DNA of 63,054 nt, counting the filler, from Rozella allomycis CSF55 (Eukaryota), in the NCBI GenBank assembly GCA_000442015.1. It is 3 parts of 3 records of this genome, joined end to end, with 100 filler letters (N's around TTAATTAATTAA, not from the genome) between each part and the next. Parts side by side here need not be neighbours in the genome. Positions count along the whole stretch, not along the records: positions 54,402 to 63,054 come from KE561214.1; 2 more parts are not named here. One strand, given 5' to 3'. The notes under the pieces are model-generated. The model had not been told where the DNA came from. It ran no database searches and saw only the letters and a list, made by a program, of their open reading frames with translations. Within the stretch, counting starts at the first letter, position 1; every line of letters starts with the position of its first letter. This document shows, piece after piece, positions 24,797 to 63,054 of this stretch. Made by a program: the position numbers and the translations under genes.

Positions 24797-27700
24797 TTAG
24801 TTTATTTGAAGTAAATTGGAGACTTTAGTTAATGCAATGTTCCATTTTGTTGATATTTCTGTGGTGATTTTGTTGTTTGTAATTTTGAAAGAGGAATATT
24901 CACAGAAAACGAGATTGATGATATTGTTTTTGTAATCGATCCATTCGCATTTCAAGTTGAAGAATTCAATTGCAGTTTCTTTGTTGAAGGATGGGATGAA
25001 ATCATTGAAGGGAGATTGAAAGTAGACATTGGCTATTCGAGAAGATTTATCGACAAAGAATAAATCTTGTTGAAATAATTGATTTTGATTTTTATCAAAT
25101 TTTGTGATGATTTCAGAAGCAACTAGGAAAACAAAAGAAGATGAATTACTTAGAAAATGAACTTTAATGTCAACAAATCTTTTTAACCAAATTTCGTCTA
25201 TTCTTGAAAGTTGGATGAAATCTCTTTGATAGATTGCTGATTGATTTAAAAGAGATTCAGAAAGTTTCTTTATTTCACAAAAGAACGATTGATTTGCATT
25301 TAGGATTAGAATATCTTTTGAATAAGTGTTTGGATTTAAAAGAAAAAACTAGAAAAAGAATAAACGGATTGATTACTCTGCAACGATACCCTGGTTTTAA
25401 AGATGAAAGAGATTCAGAAACTTTTTTGAAGACAATGAGAGCGAATTTATTTGATGATTTGAATGGAGTGTCACAAACTTCAATGCAAAGATTAGTTGAT
25501 AAATCTGAGTTTGTTTCATTTAAATATTTTAATTCCATTTGATTTAAAGTTAATTTAAGATTAAAGTTGTAGAAAGACAAGGGTAATATTCTTGTAATGA
25601 TAACATCTATGCAAGTGACAATACCACCATTTTTATTTATAGAATTTATGCTTGTTGGGATTATTGATTTATTTAAACCAAGTTTTTCAAACCAAGCAGC
25701 TCTTTTGGTAGAATTTGAAAATAGTTTTAATTTCATTGATGGATTATTGTCTAGAATGTCACAACCTTCTTTTGACAGATATAAAGAATAATAAATATGA
25801 ATTTTATCACCAATTTTTAATTTTTGTGATTTTATTGAATTTATTAAAGGTTGATCTATTGTAGCAGGCATTGAATACCAACCATCACAAACTTCAATTT
25901 CATTTTTATTTAAAAATATATTAGAAATAAAAACAATAAAATGTCTTTGTGGAATATCATCAGTTTCTGCAATCTTTTTTAAAATAGATCTTTTTGAATC
26001 TATAAATTCAATTTTGTATCTATAAACTAATTGTTCAATAACAATCTCTTTATTTAAAACATCAATGCTAAACCCTAACACTGAAATGTAGCTGGCCAAC
26101 TTTAACACTATCAATCTGTAATGATTATTAACCCATTTTTCAGTTGGTTTTCTATTGGGATAAATTAACTTACAAACATCTTCAAACGCTTTTGTTTTAT
26201 TCCATCCATCTGCAAAAACATAATCTTCTGTCAAGAGTGAATCTACCATAAATCTATCTATTCATCTTTTAAAATTTACTTTGTTGCTTTAATTGGTTTT
26301 AAATTTAAATATTTCAAGGGTATTTTACATGTTGATTCTAATCTAAAGTTTATCTTGCAAATTTACTCATTGGAATTGGAAAGTCTGAAATTTCAAAAGA
26401 TTTTTTAGATTTCTTTATTATTACAGGGGATGGGGAACATGCGTTGGGATGAAGCGACTTTTTAGACTTTTTCAATCTAAACATTTTCTTTTCATTAGAA
26501 ATCTTATTCTCATCAAAAATAGATTTTGCCTTTTCAAGTGAATCTCTCGTTATTTCTATCAATTTTCCATTCGCTGATTGAAACTGACTACATGATTCTT
26601 CATTGGTAACATCATTCTTAATAGAATCATCGTTGAATAACTGCTTAGCTTTGTTTAATGATTCTTCTGTCACACTAACTCTCTTGCCACCCCCTGTATT
26701 AAACCCTTGAAATGATGTTTCTTCTTCAAATAACACTTTAGCTTTGTTTAATGATTCTTCTGATACGTTAACCTTTTCCCCATCGGTAGTTTGAAATCCT
26801 TTGTACTCTACTTCCTCATTAAAGAAATCTCTCGCTTTATTAATTGATTCTTCTGATACATTAACCTTCGTGCCACCAGCCGTTTGAAATCCTTCAAAAG
26901 TTTTTTCTTCTTCAAACAACTCTTTGGCTTTGGTCAATGATTCTTCAGATATCTTGACCTTCTTACCACCAGCTGTCTGAAATCCTTGAAAAGCCTTCTC
27001 CTCTTTAAACAACTCTTTAGCTTTGGTCAATGATTCTTCAGATACACTAACCTTCTTTCCGTCAGCTGTCTGAAATCCTTGAAACGCATTCTCCTCTTTA
27101 AACAGCTCTTTAGCTTTGGTCCATGAATCATCTGAGACATTAACCGTTTCACCTCCAATTGTCTGCAACCCTTTAAATTCTACATTCACATTAAAGAACT
27201 CTTTGGCTCTATTTAATGACTCTTCCGATACTTTGACTTTCTTACCGCCCGCTGTTTGAAAGCCAACATATGACTCTTCTTTCGTATCCATAAAGAAATT
27301 GGAATCACTAGAGTTTGATTTAAGAAATATATTTTCATTTGAGTCTGGATTGGTTATTGTTTTAGTCACGCAAGTTGAATTATCATCAGAAAAATATTCT
27401 ATTCCATTCAGTAATGTTATTTCACTAGAATTTCTCTTTAAAGATTGTGTAGCTTGTTTCAATGTCTTCAATCGCACAGTGCTTGTTAGATCTCTTACTT
27501 TTTTATCCATCATCTCATGCAATAAACTCTCCTTATGATCTTTCCCTAGAAAATCGGTTACATTATTATAAAACAATCTATATCTATTCCTTTCTTTCTT
27601 CTCACAAGATCTTATGAGATTTTTTGAAAGGTCATCAAGCTCATCATTATCTGATTCCCCCAGAATATCATTGTATTTTCTCTTTCCTCCTGCATCCAAC

Positions 27701-41637: not shown

Positions 41638-41647
41638 AATTCATAAT

Positions 41648-41805
41648 CTCAACATAAACTCTTAATAAATAAACTCAACATAAACTCTTAATAAACTCAA
41701 CATAAACTCTTAATAAACTCAACATAAACTCTTAATAAACTCAACATAAACTCTTAATAAACTCAACATAAACTCTTAATAAACTCAACATAAACTCTTA
41801 ATAAA
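41648..41805. repeat. 22-nt minisatellite x7 (CTCAACATAAACTCTTAATAAA)
   Basis: Six perfect adjacent copies plus one offset by 4 nt, between convergent 3' ends. Confidence 0.95.
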
Positions 41806-41837
41806 TTCCTTTCTCATTCAATCATTAAATTTAAAAT

Positions 41838-49470: not shown

Positions 49471-49527
49471 TGCCATATGGCTATTCAGTCTGGTGTCTAA
49501 TTATAGTTTTCTTCCGACTTTTCGTCC

Positions 49528-50835
49528 ATGAACCAGAGTACGAAACATCAGTACCTGTTTCTGAAATGGCTCTACTTCATTTGTTTCATGGCGTTCTGCT
49601 CTGCGCCAAATTACATAACTCTTTACTACGGGACTGTGATGAAACTAAATCCTGACTCTATAGGATACATCAGAGGCATATATCCGTTAATTAGTCTTGC
49701 TTCAGTACCTCTATGGTCTTTTCTTGGAGAAAAGAAATTCGGGGTAAAGTCGGCCTTAATAGCTTCTACTTTTCTTGGGACCGCGAGCTTTATGACACAC
49801 CTCTTAGTACAACCAGATTTCAATACTTTCACTTTTCTCATGATTATAACTATTGCAATGGCGATATTTCAGTCACCTACAGTTACTCTTTTGGATTCAA
49901 TGGTGTTGATCATCCTGGGAAACAAAAAGGACCTATATGGAAAGCAGCGACTATGGGGGTCTCTTAGTTGTGGAATAAGTTCATTTATCACGGGCATTGC
50001 AGTCAATAAGATCTCGCAAAGCTTTATGTTTTGGTTGTTTCTCTTGTGGTCTGCGATCTTTTTACTTTCTTGCCTATTCATACGTTCTCAAGCTGATCCT
50101 AAGGATGATAATGCTGAAAAATCTGTTGATAAAGATGACAAAATTCTAAAGACAAAAAATATTGACTTGGAAAATAATTCGGGCAGCGATGAAGCTTTTT
50201 TGGAGGAGGCAAAGAATCACGATACACGTTTTTCTTTAGGAATTGATGTCATAATGTTCTTTGTTATGATCACATTAGTAGGGATATCATTTTCAGTTAT
50301 TTCAAACTATCTTTTCATTTTCCTGTCAAAAAGGGTGGGAGCAGATACCGCTATTTTAGGAATTAGCACACCTTTCAGTATCGCTCTAGAGGTTCCAACT
50401 TTCTATTTCTCTGAGTATCTTATTAAACGATTTGGCATAGCTAAAATGATTTTCACTACTCATTTGCTTATGATTTTAAGAGTGGTTCTGTATATGTTCA
50501 TGCCAACTTTTGTCCCCAATGCTTACTATATGCTTCCAATTGAATTACTTCATGGTATTTCATATGCCTTGTTATGGTCTGCCGCTGTTGCATTTGTTCA
50601 AAAGAGAGCTCCAAAAGGGTTAGGATCCACATTCCAAGGAGTATTGAGCACCCTATGGAGCAACATGTCCAGTAGCATCGGGGCTGTGTTAGGTGGTATT
50701 ATATATCAAAGGTAAAAATATAGTTTTTACGAAACTAGGATGGGTGACTTTTATTTATGGGGTTTTGTGGGGATTACATTATGTCTTAGCCTGTGTGTTT
50801 TCATAATCAGTATTAAAACGTGCAAACGATGCTAA
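49528..50835 (+). CDS. MFS transporter (MFSD6/MFS_1-like)
   Basis: About 12 hydrophobic helices; YGKQRLWGSLSCG, EVPTFYFS, IELLHGISYALLWSA. Confidence 0.9.
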
Positions 50836-55440: not shown

Positions 55441-55596
55441 GCAAAAAGCATGCAAACATAGATACGCAAAGTACATACCCTATATCATTTAAAGATGAAT
55501 AGCAAATTTAAAATCAAGAATAAAACTAAAAAATTGTTCTTTTTAATATATCAACTTTTCTTTATCTAATAATTATATAATGAATGTTATCAATAA

Positions 55597-56590
55597 TTCC
55601 CACCACCTATCTCAACATTCACAATTTTCTTTGGTATTACATTTAATATTTTCAGTTCATAAACCAAATTGGAAATTGAGACGATCATGTGATGGTAAAG
55701 AGCAATGAATCCAAAATCGTTATCTCATATCTAATTTCAAAAACATTCCAAAATCGTTATCTCATATCTAATTTCAAAAACATTCAGGAATTCATTTTAC
55801 TGCTGTCGTGAGCATTTACTATTATCCAGTTACCAGTACCTCCTGCGAATACTTGTTATATTTATAAATGTCTATAAATAGTGTAAGTTTACAAACCAAA
55901 TTTGATATAAAGAGCAATAAACTACTACCACCTATCTCAACAACCATCTTATTCTTTTCTATCTCAATAACTATCTTTAATACTTAACTTGGCATATTCA
56001 ATATTTTCACTTCATACACCAATGTTGAAATGGTCATTTGATTTACTATTATCTAGTACCTCTTGCAAATACTTGTTATATTTTGTGATAAATATAGATT
56101 CTATAAATGCTGTAAATTCATAAACCAAATTTGATATTAAGAGCAACTACTACCACCTATCCCAACAACCATCTTATTCTTTACTTAAAGTAGAGAACAA
56201 TGCATCCAAAACTTCCACCATCTATCTCAATAACTATCTTTAGTACTTAACTTGACACATTCAATAAATGGAGACGATCATGTGGGTAAAGAGTAATGGT
56301 TCCAAAATCGACAACTATATCTTGTAATTCAAAAACATTAAGAAATTCATTTTACCGCTGTGGTGACCTTCATTTACCATTATGCAGTACCTCCTGCGAA
56401 TTCCGAATCTCTTTATCTTGTTGTATTTTGTAATAAATATAGATGTGTATAAATGCTGTGAATTCATGAACCAAATTTGAAATTTCAAAAACACCAATGC
56501 ATCCAAAACTACCACCACCTATCTCAACAACCATCTTTACTTAAGCTAAAAAGCCGTATTTAATACTCTGAACCAAATTTGAAACTTGAT
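55597..56590. repeat. Diverged complex direct-repeat region
   Basis: Recurrent blocks CCACCTATCTCAACA (~55603, 55928, 56153, 56515), AACCAAATTTGA (x5), GAGACGATCATGTG (x2), AGTACCTCYTGCRAAT (x3); perfect ~37-nt tandem duplication at ~55712-55786. Confidence 0.75.
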
Positions 56591-57561
56591 ATACTATTAG
56601 ACTCAAAAGTAAATATAGCAGCGATTAAAACGCAAAGAAAATAAAACAACATTTTATTATTTCAATTAAATTTATTTGTAAATAGACACAAATGNACAGT
56701 ATTCATTTGATGGAGGATCGTCTATTTCTGAATTATTTCATTGTTGGCAGTTTGATTATTTGGGTCCCGTTCCAGTTAGTAAGAATGGAAATCGTTATGT
56801 GTTGAGCTTTGTTGAGGTGTTGTCTGGATATCCTTTTGCAAAAGCTGTGAGTGATACAACAGCTACAACAGCTATAGATTGTTTGAAAGAATTGGTTGCA
56901 TTATTTGGAGTTCCTGGAAAAATTATTTCTGATTGTGATAAGGGATTTACTAGTACATATTTCAGAGAAACTTGTGGGAAAATGGGAATGTTTGTTGAAT
57001 TGATTCCGGCATATCAGCCAGAATGGGTAGGTTATGTGGAAGGTCGGAATAGAACTTGCCGTTACGGAATTACGAAGAGTGTAGCAAATGGAAACTTTGA
57101 TAGATGGGATGAGCATTAATTGAATATTTTACAGGGTTATCGCGCTAGACCGCATAGTAGAACAGGGAAGTCGCCTCACTATTTGTTTTTTGGAGTAGAA
57201 GCGAAATTGCCTATGATTAGTAAAGATGATGAGATACTTGAGGGAAATGAAGTGTTGAGAATTGCAGAAATTTAGAATATTAATGGAATAAGATTTAATT
57301 GTATCAGAGAATCGAAATCGTCCTCTATTGTACCTCAGTTTGAAGTTGGTTCGTTTGTTTTAGTATTAAATTCGAAGATAAGAAAAGGGAATATTTGGGA
57401 TACGAAGAAACCAAGATACGATGGACCATTTAGAGTATTGAAGAAATTAGAGAAGAATGTTTATTCGTTGTTAGATGAATTCGGGAAAGAAAGTGAATTT
57501 CATGTATCGAGATTGATGAAGTTCATTCCACGAAAGAGTGCTTTGTCCTTAGAGGAGATAG

Positions 57562-57717
57562 AGTTAGAGGGTTTAGAAGGTCATGGAAGCTTCAGTAGTC
57601 ATGGAAACCCTACCCTATATAAGANTATCTTTCTGTGTTTTTTAAAGAAATTGAAGATAAACCTCAGTTACCTTATTGTTTGGTTGCTATCATCTTACCT
57701 TTTGTCATATTATAACT
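57562..57717 (+). mobile_element. Putative LTR with AGTTA...TAACT termini (contains an N join, true length unknown)
   Basis: Preceded by purine tract AGAGGAGATAG (57551-57561), contains TATATAAG, and is followed directly by the PBS-like sequence and the gag ATG. Confidence 0.6.
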
Positions 57718-57736
57718 TTCGCGTTATCAGCACGAC
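57718..57736 (+). promoter_or_regulatory. Putative primer-binding site complementary to the tRNA-Ile(IAU) anticodon arm
   Basis: TTCGCGTTATCAGCACGAC is the reverse complement of GUCGUGCU-GAU-AACGCGAA, a typical eukaryotic tRNA-Ile anticodon stem-loop with I34 read as G. Confidence 0.6.
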
Positions 57737-60700
57737 ATAAGANGATAAGATGGAGAATACTGAGAATAATAAGAAGAAGACTATCATGAATGTGGCTGCT
57801 GGAAGCTTATTTGAAGGGTTGCCTCCGAGGTTTGTTGGCGACGGATCGGATATTGATTCAGTGGATTCATGGGTCAGTACGTTTAAGATGGTGATCAGGT
57901 TGAAGGGGATTGATGATGATACTGCTACTCAGTTGTTTGGATGTTGGCTGGTTGGGGAGGCTAAAGCATGGTATTTGAAGCGGTTAGACACAGAGGAGGC
58001 CAAGGCTTGGAAGTTGAACGATTGGTTGGAATGTTTGATTACTCGGTTTGCCATTGTGGATCGCAAGAGGCAGGAATCCTGGGAGGATTTGGTTGCCATG
58101 AAGGTTGATGCTTCGCGACCGTTAGANCTGGTAGGTTGGGAAGGCTAAAGCATGGTACCTTAAGCGATTGGAGACGGAGAAAGCCAAAAGGTGGAAGTTG
58201 AACGATTGGTTGGATTGTTTGATCACGAGGTTTGCTGTTGTCGATCGCAAGAGACAGGAGTCCTGGGAGGATTTGGTTGCCATGAAGGTTGATGCTTCGC
58301 GACCACTGGATCATATGAACAATNTTTGACTCTGATGTTGCTTGGGAATTGCTGAAGTCGACAGATTACGATAATGTGGATTGTATTACTTTGCAGAGAC
58401 GCGCTTTAGATTTGTACAGGTTGAGNGATGTTGCTTGGGCATTGCTGAAGTCGACAGATTACGATAAGGTGGATTGTATTACTTTGCAGAGACGCGCTTT
58501 AGATTTGTACAGGTTGAGACAGAAGAAGGAAGCTTTGGGTATTTCGTTGGGAGGAACGGGGCAGGTGGTAAGACCCCAAGAGTTGGGAACTTCGGGGCAA
58601 GTGGTAAGACCCCAGGAAGCTAGTCCTACAGATCCGGTGCTGTCAGCGAAGATTGAAGATCTTACGAAGCAGTTGAATGATTTGGCTCTCATTGTTACGA
58701 AACCCAAGGTACCGAAGGACATGTCGAAGATTACATGGTATAATTGTCAGGAAAAGGGACATACTGCTGTGAGGTGTCCACAAGGGAAGAAAGAGAAAGA
58801 CGCGCCAGGGAAGACACTTGATGCGATGCTGGCTGTGACTGAAGAGATCGATGTTGTGAACAGTGCTGCTAAGAGGATGCGCGTTTATGATTTGTTGGAT
58901 GCGTATCAGGAAGCACGTCCACCGCTCGTGAAGAGAGGATTGGTGACGCTGAAAAAAGGTCCGGAGAAGAGTCCGGAGAAGAGCGAGGAGAAGAGAGTTG
59001 AGACGAAGAAAGATAAGAAGGGTGGAAGAAAAAATGTTGTGAAGAATAAGCCAGTGAGTTTTGTAGTTGGGAAGATTTGCCACCAAGAGATTCCTTTGTT
59101 TCTTGATGTTGGAGCCACTTATAGCATTGTCAGTGAGAAACTGTTGAAGGCGTTAGGTGTTGGACTTACCANCGTTGATGATTTGTTGGATGCGTATCAG
59201 GAAGCACGTCCACCGCTTGTGAAGAGAGGATTGGTGACGCTGAAGAAGGGTCCTGAGAAGAGTCCTGAGAAGAGTGAGGAGAAGCGAGTTGAGAAGAAGA
59301 GAGATAAGAAGGGTGGAAGAAAAGTTGTTGTGAAGAAGGAGTTGACTGAGCGGTTATTGGATGCTACCGCACCATTGTCGCTTCGTGAGTTATTTCAGGT
59401 GAAACCAGCTGCGATCGATGATATGATCAAGACTTTGAGGGGTTTTAAGAGTAATATTGATCGGAAGAAGAATTCGATTTTATCCGGATTTCAAGAAGGG
59501 TCGATTAACGAGGGGAAGACCAAGCCAGTGAGTTTTGTAGTTGGGAAGATTTGCAACCAAGAGATTCCTTTGTTTCTTGATGTTGGGGCCACATGTAGTA
59601 TTGTCAGTGAGAAACTGTTGAAGGCGTTAGGTGTTGGGTTTACCAAGGAGAATGCTGGAGCCATTAGACCTGTTGACGGGCCACCAGTAGCTGTGTTGGG
59701 TACTGCGACGCTTTTGATTGCGTTCTATGACGATGTGGTGATTCCGGTGAAGTTCAATGTATTAGGAAGATGCACAGTCCCAATACTAATAGGCATCGAT
59801 GTTTGTCAAAGTTTGAAGAGTAAGATCGATTACAAGAAATAGACTTGGACTTTTATTTATGAAGATAAGAATGTGGCTTTGCAGCTCTATGCACGTGACG
59901 TTATGATTCCGGTGAATGAGGTTGTTGACGGGATCGGAGGCTGAAGACGAGGAAGAGAGCTTGGATCGAGATTCAGAANTACTTTTATTTATGAAGATAA
60001 GAATGTGGCTATGCAGCTCTATGCACGTGACGCGATGATTCCGGTCAATGAGGTTGTTGAGTCGGGATCGGAGGCTGAAGACGAGGAAGAGAGCTTGGAT
60101 CGAGATTCAGAAATTTCGGAAGACGATGATGCGAATTTGTGTTTATTTGTGAAGAAGTGTGAATTGACAGATACAGGGTTAATTGTGGAGACGATGGAGG
60201 ATAGTCCCGAGAAACCAGATAGATTTAGCGAGATTGTAGAGAAGATTGAAGGGTTGAATGAGGATCAGAAAAAAGAAGTTGAAAAGTTGTTGAGAGAATA
60301 TGAAGATTTATTTCCTACTAAGCATATAGAGATGCCGGGAATTAAGGGGAGTTTGTACCACCTGGAAGTTGATCCGAGTGCTAGACCCATTAGTTCGAGG
60401 CTTAGACGGTATTCCCAGAAGGAGAAAGAGGTTATTAAGGCGGAGATCTAGTCGATGTTGGAGAACGGAATAATTGCCCCAAGTGATTCTGAGTGGAATT
60501 TTCCGATTGTGTTGGTGCCAAAACCAGATGGATCTCTTAGATTTTGTGTGAATTTTAAATTGTTAAATGCGNGACTTTTATTTATGAAGATAAGAATGTG
60601 GCTTTACAGCTCTATGCACGTGATGCTATGATTCCGGTGAATGAGGTTGTTGAGTCGGGATCGGAGGCTGAAGACGAGGAAAAGAGCTTGGATCGAGATT

Positions 60701-63054
60701 CAGAAATTTCGGAAGACGACGATGCGAATTTGTGTTTATTTGTGAAGAAGTGTGAATTGACAGATGCAGGGTTGATCGGAAGTATAGAAGAAGAGTTGGA
60801 GACGATTGAGAATAGTCCCGAGAGACCAGATAGATTTAGCGAGATTGTAGAGAAGATTGAAGGGTTGAATGAGGATCAGAAGAGAGAAGTTGAAGATTTG
60901 TTGAGAGAATATGAAGATTTATTTCCTACTAAGCATATAGAGATGCCAGGAATTAAGGGGAGTTTGTACCACCTGGAAGTTGATCCGAGTGCTAGACCCA
61001 TTAGTTCGAGGCTTAGACGGTATTCCCAGAAGGAAAAAGAGGTTATTAAGACGGAGATCGAGTCGATGTTGGAAAACGGAATAATTGCCCCAAGTGATTC
61101 TGAGTTGAATTTCCCGATTGTTTTAGTGCCAAAACCAGATGGAACCAGATGGATCTCTTAGATTTTGTGTGAATTTTAAATTGTTGAATGCGATCACAAA
61201 GAAGGATAAATTTCCACTTCCGAGGATAGATGATTGTTTGGATTCTTTAGCGGGAAAATTATTTTATTCTGTATTGGATTGTTTTGCGGGATATTGGCAG
61301 ATGTTTCTAGATGAAGAGTCTCAAGAATATTGTTGTTTTATTTCACCGTTTGGAGTGTATAAATTCTTAAGGTTACCATTTGGTATTACGAATGCGCCAG
61401 CTCATTTTCAGAAGACATTAGAGAGAATTTTCGCTGATTTCTTGTATGATTTTCTGACATTGTATATTGATGATATTAATATCCATTCGAAGACATTTGA
61501 AGAGCATATGGAACATTTGAGGAAGTTTTTCCATCGTTGTAGAGAATTTGGTATTTCATTGAAACTATCTAAGTGTTCTTTCTTTGCTGAGAAATTTCGG
61601 TATTTGGGATTGTTAATTACTAAGGAGGGAATAAGACCAGATCCTAAGAAGGTTGATGTTTTAGTCAAGACACCAAGGCCGAGAAATGTTAAGGAATTGA
61701 GATCTTTTGTTTGTTTGGGTTCGTATTTCAGAAGATTTATTCCACATTTTACTGATGTTGTTGAGCCCTTACAATGTTTGTTAAAAGAGGGTACAGAATA
61801 TATTTGGAATATAGATTGNTTATCTAAATGTTCTTTCTTTGCTGAGAAATTTCGGTATTTGGGGTTGTTAATTACGAAGGATGTAATACGACCAGATCCT
61901 AAGAAGGTTGATGTTTTAGTCAAGACACCAAGGCCGAGAAATGTTAAGGAACTGCGATCTTTTGTTTGTTTGGGTTCGTATTTCAGAAGATTTATTCCAC
62001 ATTTTACTGATGTTGTTGAGCCCTTACAATGTTTGTTAAAAGAGGGTACAGAATATATTTGGAATATAGATTGTGAAAACGCTTTCGAAGAAATAAAGAA
62101 TTTATTGACGACTGCGCCGATTTTGAAACAACCGGATGATGTAGGATCTTTTGTGTTGTCGACTGATGCGTCTGGAGTTTCCCTGGGATCGGTTCTAGAG
62201 CAGATGGACCAAGAGGGAGTATTAAGACCAGTAGGATATTATTCGAGAAGGTTGACATCCGCGGAAAGGAATTATGCGAATTTCGAACGCGAAGGATTGG
62301 CTGTGATTGCTTCGATCAAACATTCAAACATTTTCGATGTTATTTGATTGGAAGACATTTTACTGTTTTTACTGATAATTCCGCGATATCGGCATTGTTT
62401 CGTATGAAGGATCCGAGTGGTAGAGTTATTAGATGGATTAATATGTTGTCGGAATTTGATTGCGAGATTAAGCACAGAGCCGGAAAATTGAATGTTGTTG
62501 CTGATTTCTTATCGCGCCCTACAAAGAACACGGAGTTAGAAGATGTTTTGGTAGGAGAAGAAATAAATGATGAATTTAGTGGGAAGAATTCGTTGGTTGC
62601 TTATAAGAAGTTTTTAGAGGGGGGAGAATGTAGCTCGATGTTGGTTTGTCGAGAAAATTTAGAAGGACTGTTAAGAGATTTGTTTTGATTAAAGGTTTAT
62701 TATATAGAAGATCGAAAGTCCCGTTGAGAGTATTGATGAGCAAAGAGGAATTAGAATCGTTGTTGAGGAGTTTACATGATAATCTGGGTCATTTCTCATT
62801 TCAGACTATTTGGAGTTGGATTAAAGTGAGATTTTGGCGTCCTCATTTATTTGCCGAGGTTAAGCATTTTGTATTTTCTTGTGTGCAATGTCAAAGATTT
62901 TTAATGGTGAAACCGCAGTATTCATTTGATGGAAGATCGTCTATTTCTGGATTATTTCATTGTTGGCAGTTAGATTATTTGGGTCCCTTTCCAGTTAGTG
63001 AAAATGGAAATCGGTATGTGTTGAGCTTTGTTGAGGTGTTGTCTGGATATCCTT

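Follow-up and report, generated by a model that had tools for sequence, protein, structure and literature searches.

The window, that is, the whole stretch of 63,054 nucleotides of Rozella allomycis DNA analysed here, carries on its last contig a retrotransposon, whose features are collected in Table 1. The element is a multi-copy Ty3/gypsy LTR retrotransposon of a non-chromovirus clade. Just upstream of it, positions 55595-56547 hold degenerate, AT-rich repeats of families D13 and D17, each with five copies and a repeat length of 37-41 nt. Farther away, the window contains an MFS_1-like transporter gene at 49507-50715 (Pfam E 8e-68), a 22-nt tandem array at 41646-41832, and a repeat with a 93-nt period at 26627-27266.

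Table 1. Features of the retrotransposon and its junctions, in window coordinates.
Feature	Position	Strand	Basis and remarks
Gypsy integrase, 3′ part	56696..57548	+	Rve core and SH3_Tf2-1-like end; Pfam; stops in this copy
Polypurine tract (PPT)	57551..57561	+	Sequence; immediately 5′ of the LTR
LTR	57562..57717	+	AGTTA...TAACT ends; TATA-like box 57616-57623
Foreign repeat piece mis-joined into the LTR	57626..57665	+	Assembly artefact; joined at N 57625
Primer-binding site (PBS)	57718..57736	+	Complementary to host tRNA-Ile(IAU) nt 26-44; C opposite position 34; gap to LTR = 0
Spacer, PBS to gag start	57737..57749	+	Contains N and 8-nt assembly overlap between two variants
gag-pol, Ty3/gypsy order	57750..63054	+	Capsid-like gag, zinc knuckle, protease, RT, RNase H, integrase zinc finger; composite of copies, with a single N at each join

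Gypsy identity and relatives of the element

The Pfam matches follow the order gag-PR-RT-RH-IN, an order also found in single-ORF relatives, and include an RVT_1-type RT, a gypsy RNase H, and an H2C2/rve integrase. The copia order, PR-IN-RT-RH, is not that of the element, and no copia (RVT_2) or BEL domain is among the Pfam matches. The integrase part matches rve with E 2e-13 and SH3_Tf2-1 with E 5e-6, the latter below the curated cut-off. The gag start, present at a single locus in the assembly, matches the Ty3_capsid region of the single-ORF polyprotein P0005 (E 1e-15; probability 98 with the clade profile). Among solved structures, the best relative of the element’s RT is the Ty3 RT. The Ty3/gypsy domain order read in the first-pass annotation is borne out by Pfam.

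The nearest proteins, found in Smittium, Amoeboaphelidium, and environmental contigs, are 42-48% identical. A quick tree of RNase H-integrase stretches, built from 209 of 262 matches plus the element and made up without named reference lineages or a named errantivirus, places the element in a clade of 17 rows (SH-aLRT 98) with Smittium and environmental relatives. One identical fragment was dropped, as were the rows with fewer than 400 aligned residues, which include the Amoeboaphelidium protein. The element has no chromodomain match, and its position in the tree is apart from the chromodomain rows, such as P0016 and P0019. Some Smittium-type relatives (P0003, P0010, P0012, P0126, and P0261) are annotated without an RT segment, which is probably a gene-model artefact. 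In the relatives’ proteins, no N-terminal extension through the PBS was seen.

DNA of clade relatives was confirmed for none of 81 candidate stretches in viral contigs, for none of 231 candidates in metagenome contigs, and for 9 of 51 candidates in prokaryote genomes, with clade motifs in none of the nine. Nine contigs in prokaryote genome bins (L092-L100) encode gypsy-type polyproteins and are probably eukaryotic contamination.

Contig assembly and the ends of the LTR

The contig is a mosaic of copies, with 10 single Ns after 54402, and represents a collapsed circular permutation of the element, as follows. Its first 139 bases repeat positions 62916-63054 (repeat D14, 95% identical), and the segment 56696-57624 is N-free. 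Contigs from 4 of 15 listed runs were aligned to positions 56700-58120; among the contigs listed, none covers this region from end to end. In three of the four runs (X1, X2, and X6), representing two of three studies, contigs bridge LTR, PBS, and gag, so the continuity across the N at 57743, which had been suggested by a short overlap alone, is upheld. This N marks an 8-nt assembly overlap: eight letters are absent from the X1, X2, and X6 contigs, with none listed for X4. Judging from the two neighbouring placements of this 8-nt gap, the base opposite G26 of the tRNA appears to vary between the two variants.

One correction concerns positions 57626-57665, inside the assembled LTR. This segment matches loci L003 and L004, which have unrelated flanks, and loose contig ends are found at 57624 and 57666; it belongs to another repeat, mis-joined at the N at 57625. 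In that repeat family, the continuation likewise reads TGTAACT. One X6 contig (record 26) covers the end of the integrase, the PPT, and the LTR as far as 57705 while lacking 19 letters, and the true LTR is about 19 nt shorter than the assembled one. Also in run X6, over 57666-58120, the contigs of one subfamily reach a depth of about 1800-2700, versus 7-60 for the others, and differ in sequence upstream of U5; such depth may reflect either a high copy number or amplified circular DNA.

Two lines of evidence bear on the 3′ end of the LTR. At locus L002, the only further LTR junction in the assembly, the LTR runs to TAATT and is followed by sequence reading like a host gene. Among the aligned contigs, record 30 stops at 57717 and records 4, 15, and 31 reach 57688, giving an overlap of 30 nt, as expected if copies branch directly after 57717. 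Together, the host-gene junction and the contig break points support an LTR end at 57717, with the TAACT already suspected to be the terminus, and therefore leave no gap between LTR and PBS. An LTR ending four bases later and an LTR overlapping the PBS by one base were also considered; both conflict with the L002 junction and the break points. At the 5′ end, a second subfamily (L072), about 82% identical, conserves the same PPT and the same AGTTAGAGG LTR start. The layout is that of Ty3/gypsy elements, with a PPT before and a PBS after the LTR, here one collapsed LTR. AGTTA...TAAYT is given as the LTR end motif of the Zam clade in the motif listing of PMC3601003.

A primer-binding site complementary to the anticodon arm of tRNA-Ile

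The 19-nt PBS adjoins the TAACT at 57713-57717, and the gag ATG follows at 57750. In Sprinzl numbering, which is used throughout, it faces nt 26-44 of the host tRNA-Ile(AAU) (linear positions 27-45). All 19 positions pair in an unbroken run, provided that A34 is inosine. The complementarity to the anticodon stem-loop, with C opposite position 34, had been proposed from eukaryotic tRNA-Ile(AAU) sequences, and a mismatching host tRNA-Ile had been set beforehand as the outcome that would speak against it; the alignment with the host tRNA-Ile genes excludes such a mismatch. The pairing could extend to nt 46 through a G.U and a G-C pair, using the last two LTR bases.

When the host’s own genome was searched for the PBS with two mismatches allowed, eight matches were obtained, versus none for a reversed control. 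The wobble position is A in seven of these; the remaining match is the element itself, with C opposite. Six of the seven are complete copies of one and the same tRNA-Ile(AAT) gene sequence, and the seventh is interrupted by an N. The PBS itself occurs once in the assembly. A scan of both strands of the window with at most one mismatch, using 36 distinct host tRNA sequences (from 47 of 66 loci plus the Ile loci; the host set is incomplete, with 63 of 850 candidates scored), gave the PBS/tRNA-Ile pair as the best match at 19 nt, with a runner-up of 15 nt. As background, 150 random 25-mers from the window give tRNA matches of 7-12 nt. A loose 13-nt pattern of the PBS core has 31 genomic matches versus 27 in the control, a count that by itself is not enriched. 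The U5/PBS region folds no better than shuffled sequences (z -1.21). The anticodon-arm PBS in this gypsy element is confirmed as a real feature.

Pattern searches outside the host gave candidates that were rejected. The LTR-PBS junction pattern hit 11 loci in metagenomes, with a retrotransposon match at none. Three of them (L162:1804-1926, L158, and L163) are one insect-like non-coding locus, in which TAACT and an 18-nt tRNA-arm match lie inside a short inverted repeat with no retrotransposon genes nearby, and are ascribed to chance. The viral matches, at seven loci, are tRNA-Ile(GAT) genes in phage tRNA clusters, five of them called by ARAGORN and two recognised from sequence.

A tRNA 3′ end or self-priming is typical of Ty3/gypsy elements without being taxonomically defining. 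The element shows neither of these usual primer types, the tRNA 3′ acceptor end or a self-primer. No TGG is present between the LTR end and the gag ATG; a standard TGG site, which had been named as evidence against the tRNA-Ile reading, is likewise lacking after the LTR in the collapsed copy and the short contigs examined. Within the element, tRNA 3′ ends match over 8 nt at best, deep in pol, self-primer matches do not exceed 5 nt, and no second tRNA-Ile site of at least 9 nt is found.

The same PBS core, with C opposite position 34, is shared by six other host loci (L118, L119, L122, L123, L125, and L131, on contigs C597, C619, C762, C829, C844, and C949). Four of them are tied to copia domains, as follows. 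Downstream of L131 lie copia gag and protease domains. L122 is followed by a weak copia gag match, with a copia pre-integrase domain nearby, and L123 and L125 share the L122 flanks. L118 and L119 are without assignment. The copia-type junctions of the host end in CA or TA. In all six loci, the pairing with tRNA-Ile reaches nt 40 and is broken at nt 41, in keeping with the classic nt 40 cut; the four extra pairs, which bring the gypsy PBS to nt 44, are therefore particular to the gypsy element. At the distal end, pairing stops at nt 27 in two of the six loci and at nt 29 in the other four, versus nt 26 for the gypsy PBS.

Proposed priming by a cut tRNA, its alternatives, and known systems

We propose that minus-strand synthesis is probably primed by a 5′ fragment of the host tRNA-Ile(IAU) ending at A44, at the border of the anticodon stem and the variable loop. 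Geometry places the 3′ end of the putative primer at A44. The tRNA-Ile would anneal to the PBS through its opened anticodon arm. Cleavage between nt 44 and 45, whether by the element’s RNase H or by a nuclease of the host, would give a 3′-OH. RT would then extend the cut tRNA into the LTR. During plus-strand synthesis, the primer would be copied back into the PBS; the C opposite position 34 would arise because RT reads inosine 34 as G at this step. Copying would stall near dimethyl-G26, giving a PBS of 18-19 nt.

The host genome contains a Trm1 gene, and also a gene whose motifs suggest a Tad2-like deaminase. Dimethyl-G26 would be expected to block RT, a point that PMC8062790 supports in general terms only. 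The reading of inosine as G by RT is described in the text of PMC8062790, and according to the relevant part of PMC10275265, most eukaryotic tRNAs with a G26 have it dimethylated. A stop at dimethyl-G26 fits the element and two of the six other host loci; the remaining four end at nt 29.

Compared with the half-tRNA-primed copia elements, the element likewise has a primer site complementary to a tRNA anticodon arm, beside the LTR. Where their primers end at nt 40, what is seen here is pairing that goes on as far as nt 44 and abuts the LTR end. Four extra pairs at nt 41-44 would occur by chance in about 1 of 256 cases, which counts against the primer end at nt 44.

The main rival to this proposal holds that the same tRNA-Ile is cut at nt 40, as in copia, and that the four bases after the LTR form a spacer that aids annealing of the uncut tRNA and is removed when the element integrates. 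The host probably offers such a fragment, since its copia-type sites end at nt 40, and the fragment would still pair well with the PBS (-26.8 kcal/mol for nt 1-40 versus -35.4 for nt 1-44, with inosine modelled as G). Four perfect extra pairs would, however, have to persist without being copied from the primer, and the trim of 4 nt exceeds the 2 nt that are usual at integration. The rival can also draw on the literature: the primer sections of PMC1181622 give nt 40 as the documented half-tRNA start, and a short LTR-PBS gap is called common in gypsy elements in the corresponding part of PMC4139406. On balance, we consider a cut at nt 40 with a trimmed spacer improbable.

Somewhat less probable again is the idea that the PBS is a captured tRNA retro-fragment or an accessory tRNA-binding site, with priming by an intact tRNA 3′ end elsewhere or by self-priming. 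The Ty3 site is bipartite and Tf1 has no need of a tRNA, as portrayed in the pages of PMC5371799 on these elements; in addition, the assembly contains only part of the true LTR, and the host tRNA set is incomplete. Against this, the match sits exactly where a primer site belongs, with zero gap, and the element offers no TGG site, no other tRNA-Ile match of at least 9 nt, and no self-complement beyond 5 nt.

Misassembly, in which a copia LTR and PBS were joined to gypsy genes at Ns, had been named from the start as an outcome against a gypsy assignment, and it has some basis in the mosaic contig with its 10 single Ns, in the one LTR piece that is truly mis-joined, and in the use of tRNA-Ile by host copia elements, but it is now very unlikely and largely refuted. 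On one side, bridging contigs in three of four runs link LTR and PBS to a gag of the gypsy clade; on the other, a contig from one run links the LTR to the integrase end; neither side leads to copia. The integrase, the PPT, and the start of the LTR contain no Ns and recur in the second subfamily, and the copia-type junctions of the host have CA or TA ends and pair no further than nt 40.

Returning to the tRNA-Ile fragment ending at A44, anticodon-arm priming would hold for this element family, and its extension to the whole lineage would be an extrapolation. A bolder and doubtful reading is that a whole gypsy clade of early-diverging fungi uses primers made by cutting tRNAs where the anticodon stem meets the variable loop, independently of copia, with the element’s RNase H cutting the annealed tRNA as that of Tf1 cuts its self-primer. 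If true, priming by an RNase H-cut tRNA would be a third primer route in the Metaviridae.

In the sources available to us, truncated tRNA primers are a copia trait. The plant survey of Neumann et al. (PMC6317226), in its account of primers, finds half-molecule tRNA primers exclusive to copia lineages, with Bianca using tRNA-Ile, and the portion of its supplementary file 3 on dominant types has no half-tRNA for 15 gypsy groups. For fungal copia elements, Kojima (PMC10886601) reports anticodon-loop priming, which serves there as a basis for copia assignment. The relevant section of PMC1181622 assigns the 3′ acceptor stem to Metaviridae and nt 40 to Hemiviruses. As far as the primer passages of PMC6317226, PMC10886601, and PMC1181622 go, truncated primers occur in copia only, ending at nt 40 or within the anticodon stem, and the trait is treated as copia-only and used in classification. 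No report of a gypsy element with a cut-tRNA primer was found in the literature searched, which includes portions of PMC4139406, PMC7175516, PMC3315495, PMC5371799, PMC13148404, and PMC3383448 and represents subscription journals and Repbase thinly. What appears to be new is a gypsy element with an anticodon-arm PBS and an apparent primer end four bases past the known one.

A gypsy case would mean that the trait arose at least twice or crossed between superfamilies. A cut at nt 44 next to copia-type sites ending at nt 40, all on one tRNA of one host, would make it testable whether host or element does the cutting; one host nuclease would not easily yield two ends. There is a practical side as well: PBS finders restricted to tRNA 3′ ends will miss such elements.

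The closest parallels in primer usage are Bianca, a plant Ty1/copia element, and the rust-fungus Copia-18_PHord / Helenus, which, going by the primer descriptions in PMC6317226 and PMC10886601, share the tRNA-Ile, the anticodon-arm site, and the inosine-edited wobble pairing. Those elements are copia-type, whereas the present one is gypsy and its pairing runs to nt 44. With the Hemiviruses, that is, Drosophila copia, yeast Ty5, and Volvox Osser, the element would share the use of an internal 3′ end of a cut tRNA as primer, the cut being deduced in our case (PMC1181622 and PMC5371799, in their accounts of these elements). Unlike it, they belong to the copia superfamily, use half of the initiator tRNA-Met, and start at nt 40, inside the anticodon stem.

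In domain order and families, by contrast, the element resembles Metaviridae, namely Ty3, Tf1/sushi, and the errantiviruses of the Zam clade. Its RT is closest to that of Ty3 among solved structures, and its LTR ends, AGTTA...TAAYT, are like those of the Zam clade. In their primers these elements differ from it: Ty3 uses a tRNA 3′ end, errantiviruses use tRNA-Lys or -Ser, according to the passage of PMC3383448 on them, and Tf1 self-primes. It further departs from the errantiviruses in having no env, as the integrase extends to the PPT, and in pairing with a different primer, the anticodon arm of tRNA-Ile.
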